Source: Macrostomum lignano
Taxonomy: Eukaryota
Assembly: GCA_002269645.1 (NCBI GenBank)
Contig: NIVC01001368.1
Location: 124,001-188,000 of the forward strand
DNA: 64,000 nucleotides
Reading direction: 5' to 3'
Both the position numbers and the translations under genes were made by a program. The notes below the pieces were generated by a model. The model did not search any database, had not been told where the DNA came from, and was given only the letters and a program-made list of their open reading frames with translations. Below, in pieces: positions 35,176 to 64,000 of the stretch (positions are counted from its first letter, which is position 1; each line of letters starts with the position of its first letter).

Positions 35176-35210
35176 TCTCGACAGACATTTGGAGTTTCTG
35201 AAGACATTTA

Positions 35211-35555
35211 CGAGGGGTGTCCATATTTGTACTGCTTCTGCTGCGTGGTTTTTGTCTTGTGTTTGGGCCACAGACATGCTCATAAAAGTGGTGATTTTTC
35301 TTAAAAATTTTTCGCACAGCGTAAAGTTCAAGCTGCTCTTTGGCATAATTTTTGGCTGCCCAACTTCTGTCAGTTGTGTCCTTACCAACTGCACTCGTTT
35401 GTTCATAACTCATCAAAGCTAAATTCCATTCATAAATTTCCTAAAATATGTTACTCACAGATGCTCTCACTATGATTTAAAGGCTTTTTTATTGATATTG
35501 TTGTAGCCAGACATGTGCCACATCAAATATTCCCACAACTTTCGGACACCCCTCG
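35211..35555. mobile_element. Possible mariner-type MITE or relic
   Basis: 12-bp perfect inverted ends cgaggggtgtcc / ggacacccctcg; TA on the left, TT on the right. Confidence 0.45.
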
Positions 35556-36034
35556 TTTAACTACTGAAAAAATTCTACGTACCTGTGCCTCTTCGTTTGA
35601 TTGCAACTGAAAAGCTCCGAGATCAGGGCCTCTGGCATTTCTGCTGTTTATAGTTCCTATTGTTTCAGAACTATGAGCTAGAATGCTTTGAAATATTCAG
35701 ATCCTTGAGTCGAAGTCAGCTACTTGGAGCTGACAAGTGTTGAAGGACTCGGTCAGTTCTCATTGCTTTCCGATGCCGCTCTGCCGTGCTGAAAATTCGC
35801 TGCTCACAAAAGCAACGCCAATACCTGCACGAACTGCTCAGTGCACAAATCGATCCCGAGCATTCGCGCTGCCCACGGTCGATTGAGTAGCCATGCAGCT
35901 CAGAGCGGCTCTTCCTCAGCTCGCCTCCCCAGCTACGCCCACCGCTGCGCAGCTGACGGAAGGGCGACCGCCTCTCCATATCCAGTCAGTTCGGTGAGTT
36001 TGTGAATTCCTGGAAACTGTTGAGACGAGAGAAG

Positions 36035-36290
36035 CAATCAACGGCCGCGCTGCTTTCTACTCGCTGAGAAATTCACTGAAATCAACGGCCGCGCTGCTTT
36101 CTACTCGCTGAGAAATTCACTGAAATCAACCGCCGCGCTGCTTTCTACTCGCTGAGGAATTCACTGAAATCAACGGCCGCGCTGCTTTCTACTCGCTGAG
36201 GAATTCACTGAAATCAACGGCCGCGCTGCTTTCTACTCGCTGAGGAATTCACTGAAATCAACGGCCGCGCTGCCTTCTGCTCGCTGAGAA
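36035..36290. repeat. 44-bp minisatellite (~6 copies) upstream of the FN2 gene
   Basis: Unit aaatcaacggccgcgctgctttctactcgctgaggaattcactg. Confidence 0.96.
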
Positions 36291-36565
36291 ATGCTTCCGT
36301 GATTCGCAGCTACACGTACTTGATTCAGTCGGAGATGACAATGTGAATTGTTTGCTTCACGGCTTCTCTGATTTATTCGTGCAAACAGCTTTCTTCCTAC
36401 TAGTGGTAAGCTTTCTAAGTTCGAACGCACCCGGTAAGAGCTGAGGCCATCAACAATGCCGTTTCTATGCTGAAAATATGTTATAAGCTACAAATTAGCT
36501 GAAACAATGAATGGCCAAGCATTGCAGAATCGCACTGAGTCAGCGGCATCTGCACCAGCCTGCGA

Positions 36566-39362
36566 ATGACCGCCTGGCGGCTGCCCTGCTGGCTCCTCAC
36601 TGCCGCCCTGTGCTTGCGCGCCACATCAGTGGCCGGATACACAAGTGAGTCCAGCGCAGTATTTAATGCAGAAGCACTTCATGCTTTGACCACAGGCTTA
36701 TTATTGTACCAAGATCATTGAAACTGCATCAGCAGGAAAGTAGCTCGTAGTTCGATTGGAGGTTGGCTGACAAAGTTACAGTTTTGACAAAAAGCATTTT
36801 GGAGACCGGTAAGACGCAAAATCACAAAGTGACTCTAAGCCGAAAGCACATCGAATGGAAATTTGCAACAAAAATATCAACCAAAAATACAGAAATCCGA
36901 TTGATTTTGAAAAAAAAATATGTGGGAAAATTAGCTCCTCTGAGAGCGGCCCGGCACTGCATGGTTCTTCGCCTTTAAACAATTAAACGCTATTATCTAG
37001 CACGGGTGATTTAGCGACTCAATTTCAGCTCTTTCGAGCTATTCCAGCGGCTTTGAGAGCCTTCAGAGGAACATTTAGGCCAGTCTGATAGTTTTAAATG
37101 TACATCACGTCGACTCATGTATCCAGCGGTGCTGATCTCATCCGTAATGCTCAGAGCACATCCATTCAATCGCTCACAAAATCAGAGTCAGATTGCTACT
37201 TCCCGTTTCTCTACAACGGCACTGAGTACTCCTACTGTACTCGAAATGCGTACCACGTGCTCTGGTGCTCGCTCGACCGGGTGTACAAGGGCCGCTGGGC
37301 TGTCTGCGGACCGGAGGTGCCCAAGAAAGTGCTCGACAGCATACGGGCAGCCGTTGACGAGGTCGGCAAGGAGAAGGCCAAACTGGCTCAGGAACAGAGC
37401 GACATCGACAAAATGGCGAAGTCCGTAGCGCAGCTCTCGGCTGCCAACCAGATGGGTGAGTGCAGCTTCTTTTCTTTTCTTTCTTTTTCTTCAGGGCTCC
37501 TCCGTATCCGGCTCTGCCGATCTAGAGGGGGACAGGCGCTCCATGCTGCGAAGTAGGCCGATGATGGCCTCCGGGACTCCATCAAGTCCTCGGAGGCGAG
37601 CCCATGGACTGCCCGGTAGCGGTCGCCACGGGGGCAGTCGTGTAGGATGTGGCGCACCGTGTCCTCCGCGCCGCAATCGGGACAGGCAGCAGAGTCCGCG
37701 ATGCCAAGCCTGTGGCGGGTGCTGAAGTTAATCATGCTGGCGCCAGCGCGGAGCTGATTTATCAGCACCTGGAGGCGGCGTGGGAGGTGGGCCGGTGGTG
37801 GTTTGGCCGGTGCCGCGTAGTCGGCGTCCATGGCCCGGTGGCGGCGGCGGCGGAGGGCTGTCCTAGCCGCTTGAAGCTGGAGCGGCACGTGTTGTTGGTC
37901 GAGGGCGGCCGCTTCCGTCGGTAGCGATGGTGACAGACGGGGGGCATCGTTGGAGAGAAGTGAAAAAACTTGGCTTACGTTGGCAGTAGCCAGAAAACCC
38001 TTGCACGAAAACTCCAACTGTAGCGACTTTTATATTTGACAACGATTTTATAAAAAGGACTAAGAACGCGAAGTAACAACTGTACGAGTGTAAATGAGTA
38101 CGCGTCAATGTACGCACAACGAAAGTACTGAGAGGAGATAAAATAACCAGAGCCGCGCAACACCAAAAATACACACAAACAACCCAGCCCCAACCCCCAA
38201 ACAAGCGACACCCGCCACACGCCACCACAAGAAGGAGCCTTAGGGCCTCGCGGATGGCGACCAGCTCCGCCGTAAAGCTGCTGCACCAGGCTCCGGCGGG
38301 TACGCAGTGGCGGGTGCCAGGGGCCTCCCATTGAGCGATGGCCGCTCCCCGCCGTTCCGCGAGCCTTCGCCGACGGACCCGTCGGTCCAGAGTGCAGCAT
38401 CTGCTACAGCTGCTGCTGGCTTTGGAACATGAAATTCGCTCTGAAACATATTTAAATTATATTGACCAAGTACCGTTCCTGGGTCGGGGCTGGTAGTTCA
38501 AGGTTTGGGTCGGCAATTTCCAGATGAGGGCTGTGTTCCTGGTTCAATTTAGAAATCCTACCTACATGTACCTACCTAGTATTTTTCCACTACACTTACT
38601 GTACACGAATTTCGCCTCGATGCCGCGTCAGATTGTCACTCCTGCGCCCTCTCATCCACTTCCTGCCTTGCCTGCAGCCCACAGCAACAAATCGGCAGCC
38701 ATCAACGCACTCGACCAACGCCTGGCGGCCCTCAACCGCTCCCTGTTGCAGATGGAGCTGGAGCAGCGCAACCTGGATCATGTGAGACGAACATTGGAAG
38801 CTCAATTTTGATTCGTTGAAAGCCCCGGCTCTGCAAAATCAACAATACTAACTAGATTTTAATCGCCGATTCACAGCGTGCGGCCAATCAGGAGTCGCTG
38901 CGACCGCTGGAGATCGGCACGATGATCCTGCTGACCGTGTCTGTCATCACCATGGGTGTCCTGCTGTATGTATTCCACTGCTGCTCCAGCCGCAAGGGTG
39001 ACGGCGGCGGCCCGAGCCCGTCGCTGCCGGAGACGCCGCAGCTGAGCTGTCTTGCGCTGCGCCGGGTGCAGCCGCCTGCAGATTCGACGGCCGAATCGGA
39101 GGTGGCAGCGGCGTCGACGCGACAGGTGGAGAGCGCAAAGAAATTTCCCGGCCACTTCTATCACCTGACCGTTGATGAGGTGGACGAGGAGGCTGGCGAT
39201 GAGGAAGAGACCGAGGATGATGATGAAGTGGATACGGGAGACGACGCCAGCAGCGAGCAGCACAGCAGAGCAGCAGCGGCCCTGTCCTCGGCCGCCCCTC
39301 CAGCCCAGCAGGCTGCTGGAGAGGCCAGCCGCAAGCGGGGCAGCAGGTTCCTCAACAGGTGA
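36566..39362 (+). CDS. Type I membrane protein: signal peptide, fibronectin type II domain, coiled coil, TM helix, acidic tail; 4 exons, 312 aa
   Basis: Exons 36566-36644, 37186-37455, 38678-38781, 38877-39362 (939 bp, GT-AG, phases 1/1/0). FN2: CYFPFLYNGTEYSYCTRNAYHVLWCSLDRVYKGRWAVC; TM: IGTMILLTVSVITMGVLLYVFHCC. Confidence 0.85.
37470..38389 (-). mobile_element. 5'-truncated RNase H-bearing non-LTR retrotransposon in intron 2 of the FN2 gene
   Basis: Minus strand: WTDGS, SSFTAELVAIREAL (RNase H), QLRAG, CPDCGAEDTVRHILHDCP (C-terminal knuckle), A-rich tail; TSD gagtgcagc(t/a)tc at 37458-37469 and 38390-38401 (11/12). Confidence 0.82.
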
Positions 39363-39490
39363 TGCACCTGCCTCACACCAGCTGACAGCCATCCGGCACG
39401 CATCGCTAATCCAATTGATTTTGTGAATTCACCTGACCTGACTGATCGGTTTGCCGCTTTGCTTTTCTGCGACAGATTAGAAATTCATTG

Positions 39491-40320
39491 AGTTAGTTCT
39501 CATGCAAGCTGCTGCACCTGAACAGAATTCCACCGATTAGTTCTCATGCAAGCTGCTGCGCCTGAACAGAATTCCACCGATTAGTTCTCATCCAAGCTGC
39601 TGCGCCTGAACAGAATTCCACCGATTAGTTCTCATCCAAGCTGCTGCGCCTGAACAGAATTCCACCGATTAGTTCTCATCCAAGCTGCTGCGCCTGAACA
39701 GAATTCCACCGATTAGTTCTCATCCAAGCTGCTGCGCCTGAACAGAATTCCACCGATTAGTTCTCATCCAAACTGCTGCGCCTGAACAGAATTCCACCGA
39801 TTAGTTCTCATCCAAGCTGCTGCGCCTGAACAGAATTCCACCGATTAGTTCTCATCCAAGCTGCTGCGCCTGAACAGAATTCCACCGATTAGTTCTCATC
39901 CAAGCTGCTGCGCCTGAACAGAATTCCACCGATTAGTTCTCATCCAAGCTGCTGCGCCTGAACAGAATTCCACCGATTAGTTCTCATCCAAGCTGCTGCG
40001 CCTGAACAGAATTCCACCGATTAGTTCTCATCCAAGCTGCTGCGCCTGAACAGAATTCCACCGATTAGTTCTCATGCAAGCTGCTGCGCCTGAACAGAAT
40101 TCCACCGATTAGTTCTCATCCAAGCTGCTGCGCCTGAACAGAATTCCACCGATTAGTTCTCATCCAAGCTGCTGCGCCTGAACAGAATTCCACCGATTAG
40201 TTCTCATCCAAGCTGCTGCGCCTGAACAGAATTCCACCGATTAGTTCTCATCCAAGCTGCTGCGCCTGAACAGAATTCCACCGATTAGTTCTCATCCAAG
40301 CTGCTGCGCCTGAACAGAGC
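39491..40320. repeat. 44-bp minisatellite (~19 near-identical copies) between the convergent FN2 and DLD genes
   Basis: Unit gattagttctcatccaagctgctgcgcctgaacagaattccacc. Confidence 0.98.
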
Positions 40321-40342
40321 CCACAACTGCTCCAATCAAGTA

Positions 40343-40438
40343 TCTTGCTCAATGACACAAATTGTTCCAGTGGGATCGGGAATCGAACCCCGACCTTCAA
40401 GTAGTTGAGTCCCACGCTCTAATCACTGGGCTATAACC
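40343..40438 (-). mobile_element. tRNA-derived SINE head fragment
   Basis: Minus strand: A-box-like tagcccagtgattagagc, B-box ggttcgattcccg, then tgtgtcattgagcaaga; no acceptor stem, so not a tRNA gene. Confidence 0.65.
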
Positions 40439-41277
40439 CTACTAGGCTATACAACCTTCTGCTAGGCAAAATTTTAATCGATACAAAAAAATTACAGGCT
40501 CCAATGCTTTACTCGTACTAAATTATTTGGGTGAAAGTTGAACTCGTACCTACAGTACTCAAGCCAAGAGATATTTAGTTAATTAGCTGTAGCACATGTC
40601 ATTTCTGTATTATGATATGAAATATAAAGTGCAATCATCACTGAAATAACAGGCTATGATAAGCTCTACGAGCCTACCAACCACTGCAGTTACTGGCGAA
40701 TGATATCGCACGCACGGTACAGAAAATGCACAGTAAAACAAAACAAAATAAAATTCAAAGAAGAACCCAAATTCGATTTTATAACATTTACTAACTATAG
40801 AGCAGGATCTAACTCAGTTCGACAATAGCCTTGTATTTTCTTTAATAATATGTAAGTCTTCATTGAAACTTAGCATTACAGAGCATGGGGAGGGGGTGGC
40901 TGTCTGTGCCAATCCAGCACGTCAGGCAGCAGCTTCAATCTTTACTGAGATGAAAAACCGCAGGAACGGGCAATGAGAAGCATTTCATTAGTCTACGAAA
41001 ATGTTAGAATTATTTATTCACTAACGCTGATACGAAAAGTCTCGGCCCAGTTCCGACTAAAATAAAAAAGTGCTGGCAAAAAATTACATCAAAAGCACAG
41101 CTAAGCAAACCCTACAAACAGCTGAATGGCTCGAGCTGAAGCTCTGAGCCACAGGACTGTCTTGGCTTGTCAGACTTGACCTAATTTCATTCGCATTTCT
41201 ATGCTGCATTTTTGAGAACAAAAATGCCTCTTCACTCTACAACAAAAACTTGTCAGCCTGGGTCTCACAGCAGCAGC

Positions 41278-43787
<2,510 letters not shown>

Positions 43788-45790: not shown

Positions 45791-47566
45791 ATACTTAATG
45801 TTGATATTGACTTATACTCAAACAAATTTATCTACTTTTTATTAAGCAAGCCACTTTATCTAAATATAGGCAATAGGCCTACCATAGTTCAGAAAGTGAC
45901 ATATAGCTAGGATTCCTCATTGTATAACAAGGATACTTGCCATTTTTAGCATATATCAGTATATATCTCGGCATACATAACATAGTGGAAACATTGTGTC
46001 AATGACACATTTTTAGTCTAAGAATACAAACAAGGTCTTGTATTTATTTCTGGCATTGGACCCAATGTACACAAATACACAATCCAAATGATGGACCCTA
46101 TTAGAAAAAATTGCTAAATGGCAAACAGCCATCTGGAACATTTTCAAAATGACCTTGTAGCACACTGTTTTCTATGACATAGCGCAATGCAGTGCCACAC
46201 ATAAAAGACATGCAACAAAATACAAGTGTGTATAACGATTACAATAATTTTAAAGAAAGTGTCTTTCTAATTAAAGGATTAAATATAAGACTAAGAGTGG
46301 TTTTTTAGAGATATATAGTAGAATATCTCAATATGATTTTTTTAGTAGCTAGCTGTATTGTTAGATTAGTTTTAGTCAAAGATTACATTGCTGAGTGATA
46401 TTAAAACTGTTAAAAAAGTGGCAACTGCAAATAAGGTCTTTTATTGCATGTTGTAACTGCAAAAAAAGGTTTTTTGTCACAACTATGGTCCCTTAAGTTA
46501 ACATGGCCCATGTACCTTGGAGAGTGACCCCTTGGCATGTTTTTGCTAGACCCTTGATGCGCGTCTGTACATTTTCAGAATTTATTCCAATAGGGACTAT
46601 GGGGGAAATATAAGTAAAAAATTAAGAGACTCCTAATTTTCTAAACAAAAAGCTTAAAGAATATCAATAAAACTAGGGCCTATAAGAAAGACAAAACATA
46701 TTAAAAGATAAACATTAGCCTAGGTCTGCTTCCTTTAAAAATAAAAAATGATTTTGTCCTAAAAAATGAACATCTTTATCTCTATGACTATGTAAGTATG
46801 GGGCATTTTCTAAAAAACGACCTCCTAAATTTTTCTAATAAATATAGTTTCCTGTCCTTCCAATTAAACAATACTTGATTTATATGTACATGTTATCTAC
46901 TGCACTAGGTAGTTATAACTTGATATATTTTGGATAATACCATTGACATTGAGCCAATTTTTTATTATACCTCTAGCTTTTGCTATATATCACTGTACAT
47001 TAAAAGTTTCTACTAAGCTTTTATTTTATAAATTTTGTGTACCATTTTTTTATACACTTGGGTGGGGGGGGTTCGTCTGTGTTGGCTCGGTCGAGATTTA
47101 ATTCGTTCGTTCAAATCAGCCGTTCAAATTAAGCGGCTCTAGCTTCAAACAGCTTGCAAGTTCTCAGCTTGCAGAGAGAGAATAGAGAGGTAGCGCAGTC
47201 TAGTTTTGCCGACGTCCAGAATGCCGAATGCAGAAATTTGTAGCAGCCGAAATGGGAAAACTTCAAAATAAGCTATATATTTAAACTAAGTTTGTCGAGA
47301 TTGTTGCTGATAGTAGTAGTTTGCTGCCACCACCGCGTTTATACGCGGGAAAAGCTCTCTAAGCTCAAAACTAGCTCGATTGGCTCTAGGACTTCTCTTG
47401 AGACCGCTAGGCGTCAAATAATAAAGCTTCCGAGGTGGTCACGAAGGCCAAGACACCGTTTCAACACCAGAGATTAATTGGCTGGCGTTACAGGGGCCAG
47501 GTAGCTGAATAGACTTATTGTTATTAACTGTTGCACGAGCCACAAGCAATGTACTATGCTGTTATT

Positions 47567-49156
47567 GATGAGGACGCACTTTTTCCCAAATCCCGCGCTA
47601 GCACATGGGCTCTAAACTTACTTGCCTACTAACAGTGGGCAAGGGGTATTTTTATCCTTTTTCTGCAAATTGTCATAGAATCTATACAAGATATTATGTC
47701 TGGCCATACTAGTCATAATAACACATAGGCATAGCTTTTTGGGTCATAAATCATCGCTTTCGAAGCTGGTCTGACAGCCACCTGCGCCTCACTCAGTGTT
47801 GAGGCGGGCGCCAGATGGTCTGAGAGGATGCGGGCGGTAGCTTTTTTCTCATCATTTTGACAGGCCATCAAGATTTATGAGGTCAGAGCCTATTGTTCGT
47901 GTTCACTCAAGCGTGTGACAGCTTTGACAGCTATGCGTTTTACCCCTAAAAGTACCTTGAGATTAGCGATTAGCAATTTCTCTTCATTATCTTCACTTTC
48001 TATTTAATAAGAGCTTTCTAATGTATATTTTTTCATTAATTTCTGTCAATCCTACGCGAAAAGTCATAAATCATTTTGTTGCGATTTTGATTGATTTATG
48101 GCCGCACCTGTCATCTTTTTACGACCCTGTGGGAACTGATAGGATCTCTCGGTCACGTGATTCTGGGTGGCAACAAGCTTAGCCAATCAGAAAATTCGGC
48201 GCTCATTTTAACAAAACGGCTCAGCCAATCAGAATCGACGTGTTCCATTATAACAAACTGCGGTCCAGTTGGCGGCTATTTAAACCGGAGTTTTTGGCCC
48301 GCTCGGAGGCAACTCTTGCTCGGGCCCAGCACGCAACTTCTGGTTCCCGGAGCGCGACCGTCGTTTCTTGATCCCCGGATTGCGACTTCCCCCCATCATC
48401 ATCAAGGACGAATCCCCCGGTCGTCAGCAGCGAACATCAAGCGAAGATCATCACCTGCTAGCTATTAGCGAAGATTGTATCAGCATCATCCCGAGTCTAC
48501 AGCTACAGAGCATCAAGCCGATTCGGTCACTGTGGATTACACTGTGGTCTCCGGCTGTTGAGTTTCTGATTGGTTGGGTGAGAGGCTACCTAGACTTGCT
48601 TGATTGGGTGATTCCCTGTCTGTCCCCTGTTTCAGTAGCTGGATTAGGCGCACACTTTTGCTCATTTTGTTCAGTAGTGCTGGTACTGAGGCAGAAATCA
48701 CTTAATAATACTGCTAGTAGTCTGAAACTCCAATTCAATCTGAGGTGTGAAGTGATTTAAGGAGAAGGCTAAACCTGACAGTTATTTTTATCGGTTTTAG
48801 TTCTTTGTTCGCCGATGGCTCAGATGAGTAGCTAAGCTAGTAGGCGCCGGTCACAGTGGGCCAATGGCAAGGCAGTTCTCAGTCGATAAAGCAATCAAAT
48901 CAGTGAGCAAAACTGCCAGAAGTGCAGAATCGGCGCCAGAGATGTACTTTGTGCACTCTAGGTTAGCCAAGCGGCTCGGGTAATGAATCATGCGGTCTCT
49001 GAAGTTCGAGTTAGTCTATCATCAGCGCTATGAGAGGCTAGTTGGCGCGTTGAAGGCCAAAAGTACATATCTCGTATTTAGCAATGTAATAGTACATGTA
49101 GCTACCCCATAGACTCGCCACTGCAAGAATCCCCTGCACAAGTCCCCTCTGTACCT
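47567..49156 (+). repeat. Dispersed unclassified repeat, partner of 1-920, with ~670 bp extra (about 47800-48470)
   Basis: Reverse-complement match to window positions 1-920; probably continues past 49156, where the partner is outside the window. Confidence 0.88.
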
Positions 49157-51444: not shown

Positions 51445-52436
51445 ACAGAGCATCAAGGTATCTGCCCGCAGTCCTGCGCTGCATGCGAAGCTGCTCAATC
51501 GGATGCTCTGTTTATTGACTTCTTAGGAAGGCTTTCGACTCGTTCGTGAGGGCCTTGCTCCCAATCGTGCATCGTGCATACCACGTGCCGCTGCTGATTT
51601 CCGCCGTCATGACGCTGTATCATGTGGCACGAACGCTGCTGTGCTAACACCGGACGGCCTGTCAGATCTGTTTGAGACATCCTTTGGGATGCTTCAGGGA
51701 GATAAGCTTGTGCCGTTCCTGTTCGTTCTGGAGCTTGACTGGGTGCTGCGGACTGCTCTCTCCCTTCTAATGACGAGAGCGGGAGCGAGCTACAGCGACG
51801 CGTGGGTCGATGTCAACCGGAGAGACGGCTCAGCGTGTTTGGCTAAGCCAACGATCTCGACCTGCTGTCCTCAGCCACCGAGGGCGCCCAGCGCCAGCTG
51901 GACCGGCTGGTGAGCGTTGCGGCTTGCGTCGGCCTAGTGGTCAACACGCAGAAAACCGTCGTGCTCTGCGTGCCGGAAGATATCAAGGCGGTAATTTTTG
52001 CTGAGGCGCTGACGGGCAGGTGACGAAACTTCCGCACTGTCAGCAGTTCATCTACCTCGGCGGTCCGGTGCCTGACGTTCGCGAGGACCTGCGACGTCGC
52101 CGTGGACTTGCCTGGGCTGCCTTCCGTCCCGTGACGGCTGTCCTGCAGTCCGAGGCCCCGCCTGACCGTCAGAGGGTGGCGTTGTTCCTGGTTGTTCCTG
52201 AGACCCTCCTGTTGTACAACGCCGAGACCTGAACGCTGACGGTTCGCTCGAAAAGCAGGTCGATCGAACGCACTTTGGCTTGCTGCGCGCAGCCTTCAAG
52301 ATCAGCTACGAGCGAGTCATCAATGCGGCACACTATCGCCGCACCGGCCTGTTGACCGCCGCTAACGAACTGTTACGCCGTCGCCGACTCCAGCTGGCAG
52401 GCCAAATCATCCGAGCTGAGTCGTACTGCCCGCATG
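51445..52436 (+). mobile_element. Degenerate RTE-like LINE fragment, copy 2
   Basis: Nucleotide and motif match to copy 1 (gagcatcaaggtatctgcc; LQGDKLVPFLFVLELDWVL; QQFIYLGG; LLYNAET). Confidence 0.85.
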
Positions 52437-52439
52437 TGA

Positions 52440-52514
52440 CGAACTAGAGGGCTCACACTCCACCTTCAGAATTAGAGGCTGGCTCTATCAGCACGGAGGA
52501 CCGAATCGTAAGAG
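52440..52514 (+). mobile_element. Old Loa-like LINE, RT-proximal fragment (left flank of the TIR element)
   Basis: Reads GSISTEDRIVR, matching KSMITKDRIIR of the young LINE; continues in frame at 63668. Confidence 0.7.
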
Positions 52515-52702
52515 ACTACTATGGACTGCAAAATCCGCCCCTTTTTGGAGGTGGGGTGGGTGTCAACCCTCCTCGCCTCTCATTGGCTGGCCTTACTTGA
52601 CTTAGCTGCAGGGGGCGTCCGGCGGATGCAGCGAGGAGGCGGAGGAGACCGCCCATTCCGCTAGCCCCTGGCGACCAACGACTTCCGTTGAAGTGGTGTC
52701 GC

Positions 52703-55700
52703 TCAGGGGGACCCGTCGGTCTCGCCTGCAGCGCGGTCCTCCTCACCGACGGTGGGGAAGAAATCAGCTCGTCCGGTGTCCCTGAGGTACCGGGCGAGCA
52801 GCGGGATGCTCTCGGGCCTGCAAACGTCGGAGAGAACCGGGTTTGGCCCGAGGTGAGTAAGCCTGGCCCTGGTGAAAACCGGGCAGTGGCAGATAAAATG
52901 CTCGGCGTTTTCACTGCCTGAGCGGCAGAAGGGCACCGCTCCTCGGGTACTTGGCCCTGAAGGAAGCGGTGGCGAGAGAAGCAGCCATGCCCGGAGAGGG
53001 CCATGCTAACTGCTCTGAGGTCTCTGCGGTTGAGCCTGAGGAGGGCTCTACGCAGGAGAGGAGAGGGACAGGGGACGGCAGCACGGGATTGCCTACAATT
53101 CCGGGTGTCGTGCCACCTGCGGAGATGCTCGGAGTCAGCCCAGCGCTTAACGCGGGAATTGATCACCGAGGCGGGGATGGGGGCACCCGGGCCCGGCCCC
53201 AATAGCGCGCCGGCGGAGCCAGCCTTGGCCAGCAGGTCAGCGCGCTCGTTGCCGAGGAAGCCGGCGTGGCCCGGGATCCATCTGAGCTCCACCTGGTTGC
53301 CTAGCGCAAGCCCGTTGAGCTGGGTGTTGCAGTCCAGGACGGACCTGGAGCTGGCGGTGCTGCGGCAGAGGGCCCGAAGGGCTGCTTGGCTGTCAGAGTG
53401 AAAAATAAATTTCCGGCCGCTAAGCTGCCTTCGGCGCAGCTCTGCCGCGCAGGAGCTGATGGCAAGCACCTCGCTCTGAAAAACACTGGAGTTGAGCCCA
53501 GTGTGCTGGGAGTAGCTCCACACCACTTCTCCCTTGAAGAAGACGCAAGCTCCGAAGCCTGAAAGACCATGCCTCATAGAGCCGTCAGTGTAACAGTGGA
53601 CTTCAGAGTCGCTCCAGCTGTCACTCGCCTCGTGTCGAGGCTGAATGGTGACCTTATACCTTTGGCTCAGGAGAAGGGTGGCTGGGATCGAGTCCGTGAG
53701 GATGTTGAGCCCGCCACACTCCTCGAGAGCCTTGAGGCAGAGGTCAGAGTGCGGGATAAGCGACCGCTTCTTAAAGGCCCGCACTTTCTTGAAGGCCACC
53801 CCAGCATCCAGAAGACGCCGGGTGCTCTTCGCCGCCTCTCCTTTGATATAAATATCCAGAGGAGGGGCACAGAGGAAGGCATTCATGCCTTCAAAAGGAG
53901 TAGAGGGTGGAGCGCCCATAGTCATGCGGCAGGCTCTGCCCTGGATTTTGTAGAGAGCGTCGAGGTTGCTCTTGACGCTCAGGCCGCTAGCCCACACGAG
54001 GCTGGCGTAACTGATCGAGGGGCGGATGATGGCAGTGTAAATCCACCACAGCTTCCTGGGGGTGAGCCCCCAGGTGGTGCCCACGGCGCGCCTGATCTGA
54101 GCCAGTACAGCCAGGGCTTTTTTGGCTTTAGTTTGAATGTGCGGAGTCCAGTTAAGCCTGTGGTCCAGAGTGAGGCCCAGGCAGCGGACCTGCTTCTCCA
54201 TGGAAATATTCTTTCCATAAAGGGTGAGGGGCTTAATGGTCCAGAGCAGTTTGTTGGTAAACATGACTGCTGTGGTTTTCGACTCTGAGAGTCTAAGGCC
54301 ACATTGGTCTGCCCAACGCTCCGCTCGTCCCAGAAAGCCCTGCAGAAGGTCTCTGATGGTATCAACCGAGGGGCCCGCGCATATCGCGGTCACATCATCG
54401 GCATAGCCCACCTTGAGAATGGGGTCGTGGAGATCACTGCAAAGCAACTCATCCATGACCATGTTCCAGAGAACGGGGGTGAGAACGCCGCCCTGGGGGC
54501 CCCCTTTCAGGACAGGCACCGAAAGAGAGCTGCCGCTCAGGTGGGCCACAACAGTGCGGTTTCGGATCATGAACATGATCCACCGGACAAGGTGAGGGTG
54601 CGTGGCCCTGGATTCCAGGGCTCTGCAAAAGGCCTCGAAGATGACGTTGTCGAAGGCCCCCTCAATGTCCAGGAAAAGCGAGAGGGCAAAGCCGCTGCCA
54701 AGAACGGCCCTCTCCAGGAAGTCAACAATGACATGGAGAGCACTCTCGGTTGACCTGCCCGCGCGGAAGGCGTGCTGGTTCTGCGAGAGTGGGAAGCGCT
54801 TCAGCTCGACCGAAAGTAGGCGCCAAAGCACCAGTCTCTCGAGGAGCTTGAGGCAGAAAGAAGTGAGGTTGATAGGCCTAAAGGCCTTCACCGATTGGTA
54901 GTCGCTCTTTCCAGGCTTGGGGATAAAGACCACCCGGGCCTCTCTCCATGCAACTGGTACATAGCCCAGCTCCATACAAGCTCGAAGGAGACGACAGAGC
55001 AGGTCCAGGAAGCGGTGGTTTTTCACCGCCTCGTGCAAGAACGCTGGGTAGATGCCGTCGGGCCCAGGCGCCTTGAACGGGTTAAAGGACCTTGCCGCTC
55101 TAATAATGCGGTCTTTGGTGATCATAGACTTTGCTAGGCCTTGCCCTCCCACTGTGTGGTCGGGCGGGCCCTGCTGAGTCGGAGATTTAGGGAAAAAACT
55201 GTTGAGCATGAGCTCTAGAGTCTCTTCCGAACTCTCTGTGACCGAGCCGTCAGGTCTCTTCACAACAGAGAGTTTAGAAAAACGGTCATTAGTGAGTGCC
55301 TTAACCACGCGGGCTACGGGGCGAGAGCCCTCAAGCCCTTCGCAGTATTGGCGCCACTTGGCCGTCTTGGCCCTTCTGACTTGGCCCTTAAACTCGTGGA
55401 TCGCACGGGTATAGGCCTCTCTGTCAGATGGGTCTTTGGTTTTGAGCGCTCGCCTTTGGAGGGTCCTGGCTCGGCGCCGAAGGGCCCCGAGCTCTGGGTT
55501 CCACCAGGGAGCAGATTTCTTGCCTTTATAGGCCTTTAGGGGGCAGGCTGCTTCAAAGGCAGTGGTGATCGCCCCGCCCAGGGAGGAGGCGAGATCGTCC
55601 ACCACCTGGCAGTCAGAGAGGTCACTGGGGGGTCAAGATCCCGAAGGCCGCGGCTCAGCTTCGAGCCAAAGGCGGCCCAATCGGTGTTCTGACGTTCCGA

Positions 55701-56404
55701 CTCCAAGTGACCTTAGGCTTTTGCTTGGTCGGCCCAATGCAAAAGCGGATAAAGCGGTGGTCCGAGAGCGAGTCCTCGTCCCACACTCGCCAGCCCGTAA
55801 CTGCGGAAAGCAGTCCGGGTGAGGCGATGGTGGTGTCGATGACTTCGGCCCACCGCCCATTATTGAACGTTGGTGCATTGCCCACGTTACAGAAGTTGAG
55901 GTTAGTGCTGCTGACATAGGCCAGCAGCTCCTCGCCTCTGCTATTGATGTTCTTGCTGCCCCAATGCAGGTGGTGTGCGTTCACATCCCCTGCAATGAGC
56001 AGTTCGAACCGATGGGACGCAGCATAGTCAGTAAGGTTGACTAACGCGTCGCAGACAACTGGGGCATCGCCCGGGAAATAGGCAGAAGCTACCAGCACAG
56101 GTTTATTGGGAATGAGGTTATTGATTTGAACAACACAGATGTCCCCAGTCGAGAGATCAGGTCTCATCCATGCCTCAAAAGCTTTTGCAGCAAAGACCAG
56201 AGATCTTGGGCGAGGCTGAGAGCCCGCCATGCAAAAACAGTGGTAGCCAGATGGCACATTATTTGGCTTACCTTTAGTCATCCAGGGCTCCTGTACGAAG
56301 ACCAGGCCCGGAAGCTGTTGCTCTGCCGTGCGCATCAGGTTGACCGACGCCGCCACGCAGTGCTGGGTGTTGATCTGCAGACACCAGGTAGTCGCTGGCA
56401 TCAT
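52703..56404 (-). pseudogene. LINE ORF2 (APE, RT, RNase H, C-terminal CCHC) with two 1-bp deletions
   Basis: VFVQEP, AGDVNAH, SLSDHRFI; KAPGPDG, FRPINLTS, QHAFRAG, LDIEGAFD, GPQGGVL, YADD; YTDGS, QSEVLAI, SDSQAAL, WIPGHAG..GNERAD; CPFCRSGSENAEHFICHC. Frameshifts at ~55690 and ~52930. Confidence 0.93.
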
Positions 56405-58116
56405 TGCAGATCGGATGTTGCAGCCGCCAGGAGTTCCTCCTCCTCCTCGGCGCTCACCGGCTTCGGGTCGGGGTCGCCGGTGTCCATGGGCTCTTCTTCA
56501 GCAAAAGGCCCCCGATTGGCCGGAAGGCAGTAGGCAGCGTTCGCCGCCCTTTGCCCACCATCCATGGGGTCCTCCGCCTCAGATTGGCCCAATGCCCTGG
56601 AGCAGCCAGCCGCCTGGGCAGGCGGGTCCGTCTCCAGTCGGCCCTGCCCCGAGGGGTTGGGCCCAGCTGGGACGTCCCCACCCTCCCTGGACGAACTGGT
56701 GCGCCTAGGCGTCCCGGCGACCTCTCGCCTCAGCTGGGAGATTTTGGCGGTACGGACTGCCTCAGCTGCACGCTGGTACAGGCCGCGCCGCTTGGTGCTG
56801 CGCGCCGGGCGTCGGTCGCCTCCGCCCTCAGCAGCGCGCTCAGCTTTGCCCGCGCGGCCGTGCTGCCGGGCAGGGCGGTTTGCTTTGGCAGTCTGAGCAG
56901 AGGCTTGCGCCTCGGCCCCGGCCGCCTCCGCATCCCGCCCGCTCTGCTCACTGCCACGGGGAGGGTCGGCCTCGTAGGAGCGGATGCGCAGCTTCCAAAG
57001 GCCGACGTTGATGAAGCTGCCGTGTGGATAACGCCTCATCCAGGCGTCCGACAGCCCCAGGATGGCTGTGAAGCCAGTGCCGTCGGTGCGCTTAAGGGTG
57101 TCATGCACCACTAGGCCCGCGGCGGGAAGCTCCCGGTTGACTGCTAGCAGTCCTTTCCGGAGCTCGTCAGCAGAGGTAACAACGCTCCTGGCCGGGACCC
57201 AGATTCGATGCCTCTTTGTCCGGGGGCGCTCGTCCTCTCTGCAGAAGGCTAGGTTGAGGTCCCAGCTCTGCTCGGGCAGCAGCTCAAGGAGCCGCCGACC
57301 CGAGTCAGCATCACTGGGCCAAATGAGAAGGCACGAGTCCCTCGTCGCATTCGAATGAATGTTCAGAGGCGTGCCCTTCAGAGTTTGCTTCCACAGGAGG
57401 CCATCAACGGCACTTCTCACCTGCTTCAGCTGATCGGGAGACAGGCGCGCGTCCTTTCCCAGGATGACAACCGCCGGTTGCCTCTTTGCCGCATCAGCGT
57501 AGGAGGCCCGGGGGTCAGTGGAGCTTTCTTCAGGTGGGCTGTCCACCCTCCCGGCTGCATCGGCCTCCCTATCCTGGGCAGGGGCTTCCGTGGGCTCGAG
57601 GCCCTCTTCCGCCACCGCCCCAGACTGGGAAGCTTCCGCTGCCGCGGGCCGTTGGCCCCTGGCACCGGTTTGGCTTCCGCCCTCCTTGGCCCGCCTCGCC
57701 TTGTTAAGTCGACGGCGGGCAGCTCCAGAGGTGGTGCTGCGTTTCTTAGCAGCTGGAGTAGCAGGTGTCTTCTCGGAGGCACCGCTCAGAGTTGGCTCCA
57801 CGGGTCTCGCCGAGGCGTCCCCGATGGTAGCAGGTGGTATGGCCGAGGAGTCCACGGCCCCAGCCGAGGCCGGAGGCACTGTGTCATCCACAGCCGGTTT
57901 GTTACTTCGGTTAGAAGCCATTGGCTGGAAGTAAAAAGGTGGGACTTCCTGCAGAACACAGGCAAAGAGCCGCAAGGCCGCAACCCCAAACCAAGCGGCA
58001 GGCCCCCAAAAAGCAAAATACCACCCTGCGGGGGACCCAAAAGCGCAAGGGGAACCGTTAGCGACCAGACTACTCCCTGGCCAAGCGTCCATCAGCACGG
58101 AGTTACACTGGGACAT
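56401..58116 (-). CDS. LINE ORF1 (571 aa from the first ATG; likely start MASNRS at 57922); central domain resembles DUF4780
   Basis: Open frame ending TGA overlapping the ORF2 ATG; basic N-terminal region, central RIWVP..GLLAVN..GFTAILGL region. DUF4780 call is from memory. Confidence 0.85.
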   Translation of the reverse strand: MSQCNSVLMDAWPGSSLVANGSPCAFGSPAGWYFAFWGPAAWFGVAALRLFACVLQEVPPFYFQPMASNRSNKPAVDDTVPPASAGAVDSSAIPPATIGDASARPVEPTLSGASEKTPATPAAKKRSTTSGAARRRLNKARRAKEGGSQTGARGQRPAAAEASQSGAVAEEGLEPTEAPAQDREADAAGRVDSPPEESSTDPRASYADAAKRQPAVVILGKDARLSPDQLKQVRSAVDGLLWKQTLKGTPLNIHSNATRDSCLLIWPSDADSGRRLLELLPEQSWDLNLAFCREDERPRTKRHRIWVPARSVVTSADELRKGLLAVNRELPAAGLVVHDTLKRTDGTGFTAILGLSDAWMRRYPHGSFINVGLWKLRIRSYEADPPRGSEQSGRDAEAAGAEAQASAQTAKANRPARQHGRAGKAERAAEGGGDRRPARSTKRRGLYQRAAEAVRTAKISQLRREVAGTPRRTSSSREGGDVPAGPNPSGQGRLETDPPAQAAGCSRALGQSEAEDPMDGGQRAANAAYCLPANRGPFAEEEPMDTGDPDPKPVSAEEEEELLAAATSDLQ

Positions 58117-58409
58117 TAGAGGGTGCGTTTATGGTCACACCAGGACCCGGCGCCAACGAATCAGCTCGGCAGGGCCCAAGGGGGCCTGCCTTAACACCCA
58201 CGGGACGAGTACCCTTCGAAGTGCGCCTTGCAAGGTGAAAATCAGGAGACAGAGTCTCTTGAGCTATCAGCCCGCCAGGGGAGGCAGGTGTGAGCATCGC
58301 TGGCTGGGATAAAGGCCATACCAGTCTCATACTGCACAGATAGTTCACCACGCCATTACGTGCAGGACCCGGGGTCCTGGGGGCAACAGCCCCGGCCTCA
58401 TTGGCTGGC

Positions 58410-58903
58410 GCGCGCGCGCCGCAGGCGCGTGGCGCCAAGCGCCATCCAGGCGCGCGGCGCCAAGCGCCGACCAGCCACAGGCGCACCCTACCGATATGTA
58501 CCCCGATATGTATGCCCACCCTACCGATATGTAACCCGATATGTACACCCTCCCGATATGTATGCCCACCCTCCAGAGCAGCAGGCGCCCATGCCGCAGG
58601 CGCCCCATGCCGCAGACGCCCATGCCGCAGGCGCCCCGAGTGTACACTCTCCCGAGCCAAAGGTACACTCTCCCAGTACGGGTGTACACTCTCCCAATAC
58701 AGGTGTACACTCTCCCAATACAGGTGTACACTCTCCCAATACAGGTGTACACTGTCCCGATATGTAGTCAACGATACGTACCCCGCAGACCCCCTATACC
58801 TCACACCCTGCCCCCCACCTAGCCTCTTCCCCTCTCTCACCCGCATCTCAACTAGCGAAATCGAACTCAGGTCGCGCCCATACTAGGCCACTACACGGTT
58901 GGG
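58410..58903 (+). repeat. Inner part of the left TIR (GC-rich; ccgatatgta, 21-bp gtacactctcccaatacaggt and gcccatgccgcagg sub-repeats)
   Basis: Reverse complement of 63089-~63585. Confidence 0.95.
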
Positions 58904-60195
58904 TATAGGAAGTTTCAGCCCCGATGCTGACGCAGCCCTGTACAGTGAGCGTGTACGGGCAGAGAGGGGTGGGTGGACAGAGAGCCAGCCACTAGGTTGT
59001 TATACTGTTGAAGCATAGGGAGCGAGAAGTTTTAACCCCGACGCTGACGCAGCCCTGTACAGTGAGCGTGTACGGGCAGAGGGTGGGTGGAAAGAGATGT
59101 GAACAACACAGCCTGCTGCAGGAGCCGGATAGAGAGGCGCATGCTAGGACAGAGAGGCAGTGTGAGTCACACACACCCCACAGAGAGAGTCTTACAGAGG
59201 ATAGAGAGCTCCCTCCCCAGTTGCAGGGGACAGAGAGGCAAGCAGGGTATGCAGGGGCATGCGATCAGTCAAGGGGCCACGCGAGGATAGAGTGGAGGAG
59301 CAGAGATGTGTATGGACAGAGAGCAGGCCACGCGTGCGTAGTGTGAGGGAACAGAAACATATGGAGCAGGAGGGAGATAGGGAGCAAACGCTCTGGGTAA
59401 GGGAGCCACACAGGGGAGCCATGCAGCAGGGAGCAGTGTACAGTGAGACACGGGCAGGGGTGGAGCCGTGCGTGGACAGAGCTGAACGGCACGGTCAGCT
59501 GCAGGAATAGGATGGTAGAGAGGCGCGGAGAGGAGGGGGGGGGCAGAGAGCAGTACGCAGGGGTAGGCAGCCACGCAGGCTGGGGAACAGAGAGGCGCGT
59601 GTCAGCCACTTGCAGCCCGGGACAGAGAAGGGTGAAGGGGGTCTGGGACAGAGTTGCGAGCAAGGCACAGAGAGGTAGGGTCCAGTAGCTATGTATAGAC
59701 AGGGAACACACGCGAGGGCAGGACTGGGGGTAGGCATGCAAGTTGCATGCAAGGCCAGAGAGGTGTGCGCGGAGGGAGACAGAGAGCAGTGTGTAGGGGT
59801 AGGTAACAGCAAACTTTAGTAGAGGCGCGTGCGGGGACGGAGAAACCAGTCTGAGCGTACAGAGACGTTACAGAGAGGTACACAAACAGAGACCAAAGCG
59901 GGCAGAGCACATGTGTAGGGACAGAGACGTGAGGGAGAATCGATCAAAACACGCTATGTATTATCAAAAGTTGGTTTTAGTGCAGCATATTTAATAGTGG
60001 GTAGTATAATAGTATGTACATAGTGGGTATAATAGTAGTAATAATAGTAAGTATATTAGCCCAAAAGGCAGGCTAAAACAGGCTAAACTGTGTGTACGCA
60101 TCCTCATCATCCCACAAGCCCCCTCCCCCGCCGGACTCACTCTTCCAAACCCTCCTGTATTGCTGTATGAAGGAAAATATAGTGTAAAAATACAG

Positions 60196-60459
60196 ATGTT
60201 AACCGCTAGACCGCTGAAATCAGGGCACACTAGAGGGGATTTCGGGGGTCTGCATGCTCTATGTAAGCTGCTTGAGGAGGTTCCAGGGTGTAGGGAGGGT
60301 TTCCATTATGTTTTGAAAAAAGAACTAGGAGCTTTAATGCAACGTTTTATTCAAAAAGTAGGTTATTTTAATGAAATAGCTGATACAATCATTGTCGAGA
60401 GTAGAAATTTTTATAAGAAACCTGGTATTTTAGCAAAAATAAACCTTCAAACCCCATAA
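60196..60459 (+). CDS. Small intronless ORF A of the TIR element (87 aa), unknown
   Basis: ATG-initiated, normal composition (MLTARPLKSG...INLQTP), AATAAA just after the stop; no homology recognised. Confidence 0.4.
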   Translation: MLTARPLKSGHTRGDFGGLHALCKLLEEVPGCREGFHYVLKKELGALMQRFIQKVGYFNEIADTIIVESRNFYKKPGILAKINLQTP

Positions 60460-60799
60460 AATTGAATAAAAAGCAGACATTTTCAAGTAAGCAAACTACA
60501 TAGAATCTACATAGAAAAGTAAGTAAACTAGGCACAAAACCAGCAAATTTTACCTTTTTTATTTTAATGTTACTGATAAAGTAGAGAGTAGAAACTTGTG
60601 AGCTGTACGGAGTTAGAAAGTATTAGGCATTATGTATCGTATGAATTATTAGTTCAGTACCAGCCATTGGTCAAGCGAGCATTTATGAAGTTATTACGAG
60701 CGAAGAAGGGATAGAGAGGTATATACAGGAAGACCATCGTCTCCTTCTAAACCACCGCGATCAGATTGCTAATAGAGATAAGCTTTGTCTGTGTGTAGT

Positions 60800-61141
60800 A
60801 TGAGTAAGCGAAGGCGGGGCAAATACTTTTCCACATGCCAGACAGACAGTATTATGCTAGGATTTCTCTCGAAATCTCGATACGTTAGTTTTTATCACAC
60901 CATCCAGATGCGCCAACTAGTCAGCAGTAGTCATTTATATGTTGTTAAAACTTACAAACCCAGGTCCGGTAAATATTACAAAGAGTATATTACGTACATA
61001 CGCCAACCCCGAATACCAAGCCATACTAGTCTACTTGCAGTGCTCCCGGAGGGAAGGGTTGGTCTGGAGTTACACACCAAGAATGCATTCATACAAAGAG
61101 TACACCAGTCGAGCCCAGTCCAGGCGCCCCGACAAGTATGA
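60800..61141 (+). CDS. Small intronless ORF B of the TIR element (113 aa, basic), unknown
   Basis: MSKRRRGKY start (NLS-like), Tyr/Lys/Arg-rich; no homology recognised. Confidence 0.35.
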   Translation: MSKRRRGKYFSTCQTDSIMLGFLSKSRYVSFYHTIQMRQLVSSSHLYVVKTYKPRSGKYYKEYITYIRQPRIPSHTSLLAVLPEGRVGLELHTKNAFIQRVHQSSPVQAPRQV

Positions 61142-61931
61142 CGCAGGCACACCCTCCCGACATGTACACCGACATGTATGCAGCAGACGCCCCTCCCGAC
61201 ATGTACCCGACATGTACACCCTACCATATGGCGCGCGAGCCACAGGTGCCAAGCGCGGTCCGGGCCCCCCGAAATGTATCCCGCAGGCGCCCCCTCCCGA
61301 TCTGAAGGTACACTCTCTCAATATGTGTGTACACTCCCCGATATGAGTGTACACTCTCCCAATATGAGTGTACACTCTCCCGATATGTATGTGTACACCG
61401 ATATGTAACCAACGATATTAACACAAAATTAGGCTAGTGAAAACTACTTATAGTAGGTGAAATTGCGTATATTTACATAAAAAGTAAGCAAAACGCATAT
61501 TAAACATATCAGTAGGTGTAAATATCGGTGCATAATGCATATTACGATGCATATAGGTGTACAGACATATAGAATTAAGTATATGGGCAGCAAAAAACAC
61601 ACAATATAGATGCATTTTATCGATATATTGACAGAAAAGTGGGTGAAATAGACAAAATCGTAATACAAAGCGGGTACATATCGCTTTATTAGTGGAGTAG
61701 GCGCTTGCAGATGCTAGTATAATGTAAAACATAGGTTGAAATACACATACACAGAGTACATACAAGTATAATGCAGGTGCATATGCACACACTGTAGATT
61801 CAATTATGTAGGTGTATAGGCTAAAATACACACATCGTAGAGGCAGAAGCAAGCATAATGCAGGAAAATTATGATACATATTAGTGCATAAAAGTATCAT
61901 ATTATGACACACTGTAGCACATATTGACATA

Positions 61932-62213
61932 ATGCAGGGGAAAATATTGACAGAAATAATGCACAATTGTAGAGGTAACAACCCGCCAACTAGTAAGGGC
62001 ATCCAACACTTGTTCAGGTTTTTATTATTTCGAGACGAGTGTCACGCCCTCGCAAGAGATCTTATCAGACATTTGTTGAACCCCACTGCAACTCCCCAGA
62101 GCCTCCAAATGCGAGTTTTTAACCCAGGGTCGAGTACAAAGGGCCCGCCCACTCTTAACCCCAAGGGGAGATCCCTAGCGGAGACCAAGTACAGTGCGGA
62201 TGGAGAGGGGTAA
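61932..62213 (+). CDS. Small intronless ORF C of the TIR element (93 aa), unknown
   Basis: MQGKILTEIMHNC...HLFRFLLFRDECHALARDLIRHLLN; no homology recognised. Confidence 0.3.
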   Translation: MQGKILTEIMHNCRGNNPPTSKGIQHLFRFLLFRDECHALARDLIRHLLNPTATPQSLQMRVFNPGSSTKGPPTLNPKGRSLAETKYSADGEG

Positions 62214-62638
62214 CAGAAAGCGCTGCATCAGACCGCGGAGCTGCATTCCTCCCTGAGGTAGGCGCGTCAGCTCCCACTCCTCATTTAACCATCAAGTAAA
62301 CTAAATAAGTCAAGCAGAAAGCCCCTACATTCACCCACAACCAGCACAAGTAAGAGTACTTTCCACTAGAGAGCCATAGTGCAAGATTCGCGAGCCAAGT
62401 TGAAGCACCCCCAATTACACTAAAGACATATGTATTAAAAAGCAGGCCTGCACCTCTACAAAAACACAGTATGTACCAACAAAATTTGCTTTTGGTGCAG
62501 CGTATTTAATAAAAAGCAGGTATCTTAGCACAAAAGTAGGCATCAATGCGGTGCACGGGCTAAACTGTATAAACTGTATTTACAAACGCAGGTCAACAAA
62601 CTACACACAATGTAGCGCATAGACATAATTGTACGCAT

Positions 62639-63000
62639 AAATGTACACAATTTCCTGTATATAGGACCACATGTACGCAAATTTACGCAAATGTACACAC
62701 ACACACACACACACACATGCACGCACACGCGTATTCACAGCAAGAGCTCCCTGCCGATGGCGCCATCGCCTGCGGCGATCGGCGCTGCAGGATGCGCTGC
62801 AGGATACGCGTGTGCGTGCATGTGTGTGTCTGTGTGTGTGTGTATACATTTGCGTAAATAAAATAAATAATAAATAAATAAATAAAATAAATAAAATACA
62901 GTGTAAATAATAAATAATAAATAAAATACAGTGTGTGCATATGCACAAATGTACACAATTTCCTGTATATAGGACCACATGTACGCAAATTTACGCAAAT

Positions 63001-63033
<33 letters not shown>

Positions 63034-63085
63034 CACGCACACGCGTATCCTGCAGCGCATCCTGCAGCGCCGATCGCCGCAGGCG
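62639..63085. repeat. Direct-plus-inverted triplication with (CA)n/(TG)n arms and an (AAAT)n spacer
   Basis: 62639-62734 repeats at 62947-63048; 62767-62859 is the reverse complement of 62989-63085 and partly of 62681-62734. Confidence 0.92.
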
Positions 63086-63088
63086 AAG

Positions 63089-63661
63089 CCCAACCGTGTA
63101 GTGGCCTAGTATGGGCGCGACCTGAGTTCGATTTCGCTAGTTGAGATGCGGGTGAGAGAGGGGAAGAGGCTAGGTGGGGGGGGCAGGGTGTGAGGTATAG
63201 GGGGTCTGCGGGGTACGTATCGTTGACTACATATCGGGAGAGTGTACACCTGTATTGGGAGAGTGTACACCTGTATTGGGAGAGTGTACACCTGTATTGG
63301 GAGAGTGTACACCCGTACTGGGAGAGTGTACCTTTGGCTCGGGAGAGTGTACACTCGGGGCGCCTGCGGCATGGGCGTCTGCGGCATGGGGCGCCTGCGG
63401 CATGGGCGCCTGCTGCTCTGGAGGGTATGCATACATATCGGGAGGGTGTACATATCGGGGTACATATCGGTAGGGTGGGCATACATATCGGGGTACATAT
63501 CGGTAGGGTGCGCCTGTGGCTGGTCGGCGCTTGGCGCCGCGCGCCTGGATGGCGCTTGGCGCCACGCGCCTGCGGCGCGCGCGCGCCAGCCAATGAGAGG
63601 CGAGGAGGGTTGACACCCACCCCACCTCCAAAAAGGGGCGGATTTTGCAGTCCATAGTAGT
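63089..63661 (-). repeat. Right TIR (573 bp), uninterrupted
   Basis: cccaaccgtgtag ... gcagtccatagtagt; inverted match to the split left TIR. Confidence 0.96.
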
Positions 63662-63667
63662 TAAAAG

Positions 63668-64000
63668 TGGCTACCACATTTCAGTATTTTAAAGCTCCAT
63701 GGACCGCCTTCCTGAGAGAGGCGGTTAAATTCCCGGTTTCCTGCGTAGACCTTGCAGCCTTTTCAGGCATGAATCACGCTTGGATATGTCCCATATGCTT
63801 GGACCGAGGCAAATGAGATTTTCACCCCTAAGCCAGGCTGCCCGGACTATCATTCCATCACATCCATCAGACCGATCAGCCTTACCTCCTCCCTGGTCAA
63901 GCTGATGGAGAGACTGGTGCTCTGACGCCTTCTCTCTGTGGAGCTGAAGAACAAGCCTCTTAGCGAAAACCAGCATGCTTTTCGGGCGGATCGTTCAACC
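63668..64000 (+). mobile_element. Old Loa-like LINE RT fragment (right flank), degenerate, runs off the window
   Basis: VATTFQYFKAP, LGYVPYAW, FTPKPG, IRPISLTS, LMERLVL*RLLSVELK, NQHAFRA. Confidence 0.88.

Follow-up and report, generated by a model that had tools for sequence, protein, structure and literature searches.

A short element with long terminal inverted repeats, partly Polinton-like ends and no recognizable core genes in Macrostomum lignano

Can a DNA element that has many features of Polinton/Maverick (adintovirus) ends, and none of the genes that define that group, be one of its members? The question is raised by a locus in a window of 64,000 nt from Macrostomum lignano (assembly GCA_002269645.1, contig NIVC01001368.1, positions 124,001-188,000; coordinates below are window positions). 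Here, an element bounded by near-identical terminal inverted repeats (TIRs) has inserted, with a 6-bp duplication, into a decayed reverse transcriptase (RT) gene of a long interspersed nuclear element (LINE); it carries no recognizable mobility machinery and was later interrupted by a second LINE. We favor, at a probability of about 0.45, the reading that it is a compact non-autonomous Polinton/Maverick-type element, mobilized whole by proteins that another element provides in trans.

Structure and insertion of the element

The element is real, recent and structurally well defined. Its outer inverted arms (52515-52591 and 63585-63661) were 100% identical over 77 nt, and its inner arms (58397-58903 and 63089-63597) were 98.8% identical. 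They delimit a left TIR of 571 bp, in two pieces, and a right TIR of 573 bp, which are about 99% identical and differ by four substitutions (0.7%) and one 2-nt indel, in agreement with the TIRs of about 573 bp described in a first-pass annotation of the locus. The interior, which that annotation had put at about 4.2 kb, measured 4,185 bp (58904-63088), and the summed parts, without the inserted LINE, gave an element of 5,329 bp. Because the TIRs are nearly identical, either the insertion or a homogenization of the TIRs must be recent. No second copy was found in window positions 1-52514, the one known copy being that at this locus, and the terminal 25-mer had 0 exact matches in the GTDB prokaryotic genomes.

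The LINE of some 5.8 kb that had been reported to split the left TIR proved to be 5,805 bp long (52592-58396, minus strand) and interrupts the TIR 77 bp from the element end. It is flanked by an exact 13-bp target-site duplication (TSD) at 52579-52591 and 58397-58409. Since this 13-bp target sequence occurs singly in the right TIR, the LINE arrived after the element. Pfam searches recognized RVT_1, RNase_H and Exo_endo_phos_2 domains in the LINE, and its frames are broken near 55655 and 52945. Across 54% of the query, the frame encoding RT and RNase H showed 100% identity to an M. lignano protein in UniRef; the same species was the named source of at least four further matches among the 120 UniRef matches listed for this frame. 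The inner LINE is apparently young and full-length.

The TSD of the element itself had been reported as a 6-bp repeat; its length stands, but its identity is imperfect. The two flanks, TAAGAG and TAAAAG, match at five of six positions, with one mismatch. When flank lengths of 2-12 were compared, six alone gave no more than one mismatch, and the chance of at least 5/6 identity is 0.005, or 0.024 if any length of 5-10 is allowed. A second line of evidence came from the interrupted gene. The right flank is related to the RT gene of the inner LINE, but decayed (67% nucleotide identity). In a register test, the inner LINE was read in six frames and the 13 codons that close the left flank were scored against the resulting 11,528 windows; the best placement lay directly upstream of the right-flank match (score 31, against 18 for the next). 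The right flank, scored separately on open reading frame (ORF) 2 of the inner LINE, gave 31 against 13. The same codon of ORF2 was claimed by both separately scored flanks, and this overlap, together with the reading phases, means that 6 nt are present twice. Both flank peptides were placed no more than 15 amino acids apart in 11 of 120 LINE relatives, nine of which showed the same overlap. The 6-bp TSD, though imperfect, is independently supported by the LINE register, and the order of events is old LINE, then element, then young LINE.

The target of the element (52470-52514 plus 63662-64000) is a decayed RT gene from the same LINE group as the young LINE. Two LINE-like RT fragments, 75% identical to each other, lie at 7902-8794 and 51508-52431, the second adjoining the left flank of the element.

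Gene content and history of the interior

The first-pass annotation had found no core genes, and our searches agreed. None of the 83 interior stop-to-stop segments of at least 30 amino acids matched Pfam at E<=0.01, and the longest interior open frame was 200 amino acids. NCBIfam matched 0 of 14 element proteins, and PHROGs matched one of 13 (E 0.085). The interior frames contained no polymerase, Walker A or protease sequence pattern. A protein-primed DNA polymerase of family B (pPolB) was found neither with Pfam in the 83 frames nor with motif patterns, all frames being at most 200 amino acids long, and a capsid, ATPase and protease module was found with neither Pfam, PHROGs nor patterns, the frames all being too short. 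The 83 frames also yielded no superfamily 1 (SF1) helicase by Pfam and no retroviral-like integrase, just two chance D-x35-E spacings in a purine-rich tract. With no recognizable enzyme gene and no frame above 200 amino acids, the element cannot be autonomous, which supports the earlier proposal of a non-autonomous element.

Three small co-oriented ORFs had been described, and these were recovered as ORFs A, B and C; a longer minus-strand frame, ORF D, which overlaps the start of ORF C, had been overlooked. Within two unique AT-rich segments of the interior, four ORFs of at least 87 amino acids were seen, against some 0.4 predicted from 3-mer shuffles. As controls, 17 tiles of the window with a G+C fraction no higher than 0.46, two further tiles that code for EnSpm having been set aside, held two such ORFs against 2.2 expected. 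Three non-overlapping ORFs on one strand arose in no more than 1 of 1,000 shuffles. For the interior taken as a whole, three ORFs of at least 80 amino acids on one strand were unremarkable (P 0.475), the excess being confined to the AT-rich part. These data support the presence of some real genes among the candidates, with ORF A the best of them. Upstream of ORF A lie a TATA-like TATTTAA (59988) and a GTAAGT donor (60047), the latter falling between two codons of a short, hydrophobic upstream frame; an acceptor-like CAG stands immediately 5' of the ATG, and AATAAA follows 6 nt past the stop. Trans-splicing of spliced leaders, a common process in Macrostomum (PMC10468722), might make use of acceptors of this kind.

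The earlier suggestion that the interior carries a mini-cargo is supported by the ORF excess over shuffles and control tiles, but no credible homolog was found. For ORF A, a word-index search gave 0 matches from one candidate (lengths 47-153 only), and the Atlas gave no usable match. A phmmer search of 1.84 billion representatives returned two matches (E 1.4e-4 and 3.2e-4), which we judged spurious; both were long, bacterial-looking repeat proteins with scores summed over 4-6 stretches, and in pairwise alignment the first had no stretch better than 32 bits (28% identity). The single-sequence model of ORF A was poor (pLDDT 58, pTM 0.32, two helices), and with it 0 of 31 Foldseek matches reached E<=0.001. 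ORF B had no word-index candidate (lengths 62-198 only) and no Atlas match, ORF C had no match in family and PDB searches, and in the PDB neither ORF A, ORF B nor ORF C had a match with an E value under 0.04. ORF D matched nothing in Pfam, PHROG and NCBIfam (family searches only). It has three hydrophobic peaks and just three acidic residues, and it lies in purine-pyrimidine-alternating DNA; on account of the few acidic residues and the alternating DNA, ORF D may be a compositional artefact rather than a gene.

The features of the locus are collected in Table 1. Between the direct duplication and module M1 lies the purine-rich tract (59100-59945, up to 72% A+G), which has no similarity elsewhere. 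Modules M1 and M2 aligned with a score of 84, against a maximum of 40 in 500 shuffles, and each has a TIR-like cluster 1.0-1.2 kb upstream of it. M2 carries a 12-mer around AATAAA that is also found past the ORF A stop, and these are its only two occurrences in the window. The internal TIR copy at 61144-61417 corresponds to the middle part of the TIR; the outer and inner parts were not detected beside it. A full tandem duplication of the interior was unsupported, as the spacers scored 48 against a shuffled maximum of 48.5. Beside the right TIR, the (CA)n fold-back has a predicted folding energy of -144 kcal/mol (z -18). The 10 Rfam matches, mostly microRNA models on the (CA)n hairpin, were all under the gathering score and were dismissed. 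Because the interior duplications (71-82%) are far older than the TIR pair, the interior predates the present insertion. Its long history lies either in a compact lineage or in the accessory region of a parent element.

Table 1. Features of the element, its target site and the LINE within it (window positions)
Feature	Position	Strand	Basis or remark
Left TSD copy, TAAGAG	52509..52514	+	flank comparison; register test against LINE relatives
Left TIR, outer 77 bp, starts (ACT)2	52515..52591	+	100% vs reverse complement of 63585-63661
Young LINE, RT-RNase H frame	52519-55209	-	
Young LINE, endonuclease frame	55655-56404	-	
Young LINE, ORF1	56401-58116	-	
Left TIR, remainder	58410..58903	+	arrays of 25-, 33-, 15- and 21-bp tandem repeats
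75-bp direct duplication, directly inside left TIR	58909..59097	+	91%
Module M1, holds TATTTAA at 59988	59946..60091	+	homologous to M2
ORF A, 87 aa, best candidate gene	60196-60459	+	flanking signals
ORF B, 113 aa	60800-61141	+	basic (19 K+R)
Internal diverged TIR copy, left-TIR orientation	61144..61417	+	71% identity
ORF D, 184 aa, longest interior ATG ORF	61448-62002	-	hydrophobic, Cys/Tyr-rich
ORF C, 93 aa	61932-62213	+	
Module M2	62461..62568	+	homologous to M1
(CA)n-containing unit, forward/inverted/forward fold-back	62632..63086	.	adjoins right TIR
Right TIR, 573 bp, ends (AGT)2	63089..63661	-	
Right TSD copy, TAAAAG	63662..63667	+	flank comparison; register test against LINE relatives

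Ends, affinities and competing explanations

Terminal trinucleotide repeats had been noted at the element ends, and these are present, in two copies at each end, as 5'-(ACT)2...(AGT)2-3'. The terminal bases, 5'-A...T-3', fit Maverick ends. Repeat 6-mers of this kind make up 2.9% of the 6-mers in the window, and 0.8% start with A. Vertebrate Mavericks have TIRs that range from 46 to 1,447 bp, are flanked by 6-bp TSDs and carry one of three end motifs, (AGT)2//(ACT)2, (AG)3//(CT)3 or (AC)3A//T(GT)3 (Barreat and Katzourakis, PMC8097293), and a published Polinton example has a 584-bp TIR and a 6-bp TSD (PMC3014272). The proposal of Polinton-like ends is borne out by the TSD and TIR lengths, the 6-nt short-repeat motif and the A...T termini, but not by the published motif or by a homology link. 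Overlap with the Monopterus motif is limited to the dinucleotides 5'-AC...GT-3'. ACTACT as a Polinton end motif was not met among the best matches of our literature search, which is weak evidence that it is unpublished. Repbase sorts non-autonomous elements by TSD length and first 11 bases (PMC4455052).

Unlike Polintons, which measure 12.7-24.6 kb, the element is 5.3 kb long, lacks the core genes and ends in (ACT)2//(AGT)2. It cannot be filed as a Polinton, because the defining genes were absent on testing and no helper was seen; our tentative view is that it works like a non-autonomous one. That category appears to be known already. The letter N in a Repbase name denotes a non-autonomous element. 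The zebrafish Polinton-1N1_DR, known to us by name (PMC9341505), would share with the present element the combination of Polinton-type ends and no machinery. Partial and TIR-only copies occur in Caenorhabditis elegans (bioRxiv 2024.01.15.575659), a study of the anole reported no apparent non-autonomous Polinton copies (PMC3014272), and Mavericks have been annotated in planarians (Dugesia; bioRxiv 2025.12.11.693146). No compact element of this kind appears in the accessible portions of PMC10748475, PMC8502044, PMC5499653, PMC6431247 or bioRxiv 2025.02.07.637071. Set against published Polinton ends, the novelty lies in the different end motif, in small genes that are probably orphans of the element's own, and in an interior with duplications and an internal TIR copy.

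Under the favored reading of a compact Polinton-type element, a retroviral-like integrase from a larger helper with the same ends would have made the 6-bp staggered insertion. In adenovirus, a duplicated terminal trinucleotide serves jump-back in protein-primed replication (PMC5175343); less surely, the (ACT)2 ends could act as origins for the protein-primed polymerase of the helper through a similar three-base jump-back. The repeat arrays of the TIRs would be putative binding sites. The interior would be an old, rearranged structure carrying one to four small orphan genes, which may be passengers rather than mobility genes and would probably be transcribed by host RNA polymerase II.

Several observations weigh against this reading. 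It is based on a single copy at one locus. The end motif is a swap of the canonical Maverick motif and matches none of the three published vertebrate motifs, and no protein homology to any Polinton gene was found. The TSD is mismatched although the TIRs are about 99% identical, and 109 of the 120 LINE relatives place at least one of the short flank peptides elsewhere, such that the register test leans on the closest relatives. The thresholds and segments of the ORF analysis were picked after seeing the data, and the Atlas scores of ORF A (1375) and ORF B (1108) lie below the level at which known families are recognized (2300). In the accessible literature, to which the repeat-class supplement of the genome paper did not belong, we found nothing linking Macrostomum to Mavericks; two papers that contain both words concern other subjects, to judge by their titles and the opening of their abstracts.

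Of the other explanations, we first consider a non-autonomous cut-and-paste transposon of the fold-back type, whose mobilizing DDE transposase would generate 6-bp TSDs and belong either to another superfamily or to one not yet described. Long TIRs built of tandem repeats are typical of fold-back elements, and the long tandem-repeat TIRs seen here would also fit them. The departure of the ends from the canonical Maverick motifs likewise speaks for such a transposon, as does the older internal TIR copy, which suggests nesting of related elements. The terminal (XYZ)2 repeat is left unexplained on this view. EnSpm/CACTA elements have CACT(A) termini and a short TSD; the bases outside ACTA in our element are G and A, and without a preceding C this is not a CACTA end, while flanks of 2-4 bp match at 0-1 positions. 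IS3EU/GingerRoot elements share the 6-bp TSD and have an integrase-related transposase and non-autonomous members, but their ends are TA..TA, rarely TG..CA, and Ginger TSDs are 4-5 bp (PMC10045372). The element has neither pair of ends, and shifting its boundaries to give TA..TA leaves a flank identity of 1/6, so that these ends are attainable only by losing the TSD. We consider a cut-and-paste origin unlikely.

The same end and TSD evidence applies if the element is a one-off remnant of a full-length Polinton that lost a core of 10-12 kb, kept its TIRs and accessory regions, and never moved in its present form. In vertebrate Mavericks, regions with accessory ORFs lie next to the TIRs, and degraded copies form the majority (PMC8097293); the internal repeats offer substrates for deletion, and only one copy was seen. 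Yet TIRs that are 0.7% apart leave little time for the loss of a core, and no core-gene fragment was found in the 83 frames. This, too, we regard as unlikely. Taken together, the readings that relate the element to Polintons are probable.

A more ambitious version of the helper hypothesis would place the element in a satellite lineage, multi-copy and gene-carrying, of a Polinton-like flatworm virus that has (ACT)2 ends and is as yet undescribed; the lineage would be an animal counterpart of the transpovirons. Such a satellite would exist as free linear DNA replicated by the helper polymerase, be integrated by the helper, possibly be packaged in its capsids, and express orphan genes of its own. 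We think this improbable.

Still more doubtful is an integrated small linear double-stranded DNA satellite or plasmid of the transpoviron type, replicated and packaged by an unknown flatworm DNA virus, and just as doubtful is that the ORFs of the element serve parasitism of that virus. Transpovirons are linear, about 7 kb long, bounded by TIRs, and carry a helicase (PMC5499653). The element is close to them in size, and both would be small, linear, TIR-bounded DNAs that lack capsid genes and depend on a helper virus. Its replication-type ends, the gene-like signals at ORF A and the fold-back beside the TIR, which may resemble a template-switch product, would suit such a satellite. However, transpovirons encode an SF1 helicase and parasitize mimiviruses, neither of which was seen for the element.

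The genome is repeat-rich and the TSD imperfect, but the two nested independent TSDs, the collinearity of the flanks with one LINE gene and the TIR ends flush with the TSD leave an assembly artefact or chance inverted duplication a negligible prospect.

Significance and genomic surroundings

If a helper with these ends exists, (ACT)2//(AGT)2 would be a fourth Polinton end motif, and the element would offer a small, natural way of reading which cis sequences a Polinton integrase and polymerase need, in a tractable regeneration model. Should young compact copies with TSDs of their own exist, they would be evidence that Polintons mobilize gene-carrying passengers in trans. Screens that need pPolB plus integrase, or canonical AG/AGT ends, as in PMC8097293 and PMC10748475, would overlook such elements. 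As a lone deletion remnant, the element would be ordinary.

The window covers animal DNA rich in repeats, among them remains of Gypsy-like, BEL-like and EnSpm-like elements, and it also holds a gene resembling dihydrolipoamide dehydrogenase. An open frame of 770 amino acids at 15226-17538 on the minus strand matches DUF1258 and, weakly, Transposase_21 (EnSpm/CACTA-like); a 73-bp tandem array lies beside it (repeats 14421-14969), and a clear TIR pair was not found in 13500-19500. As a helper for the element this transposase was ruled out, since no similarity was found between the element and the EnSpm-like copy in the window and the TSD length is unsuitable. From their translations, we named a Gypsy-like gag-pol at 21515-25097 (plus strand) and BEL/Pao-like remains at 9691-11871 (plus strand); the gag-pol is accompanied by a direct repeat of 108 bp, whose copies lie at 21256 and 25502. 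Exons at 41278-43787 (minus strand) encode a host pyridine nucleotide-disulphide oxidoreductase, likewise named from its translations as dihydrolipoamide-dehydrogenase-like. Long inverted copies of an interspersed repeat (89-100% identical in blocks) occupy 1-921 and 47566-49156, one of them passing the window start, and 28860-40452 holds a dense cluster of minisatellites with periods of 28, 36, 44, 52 and 60 bp.

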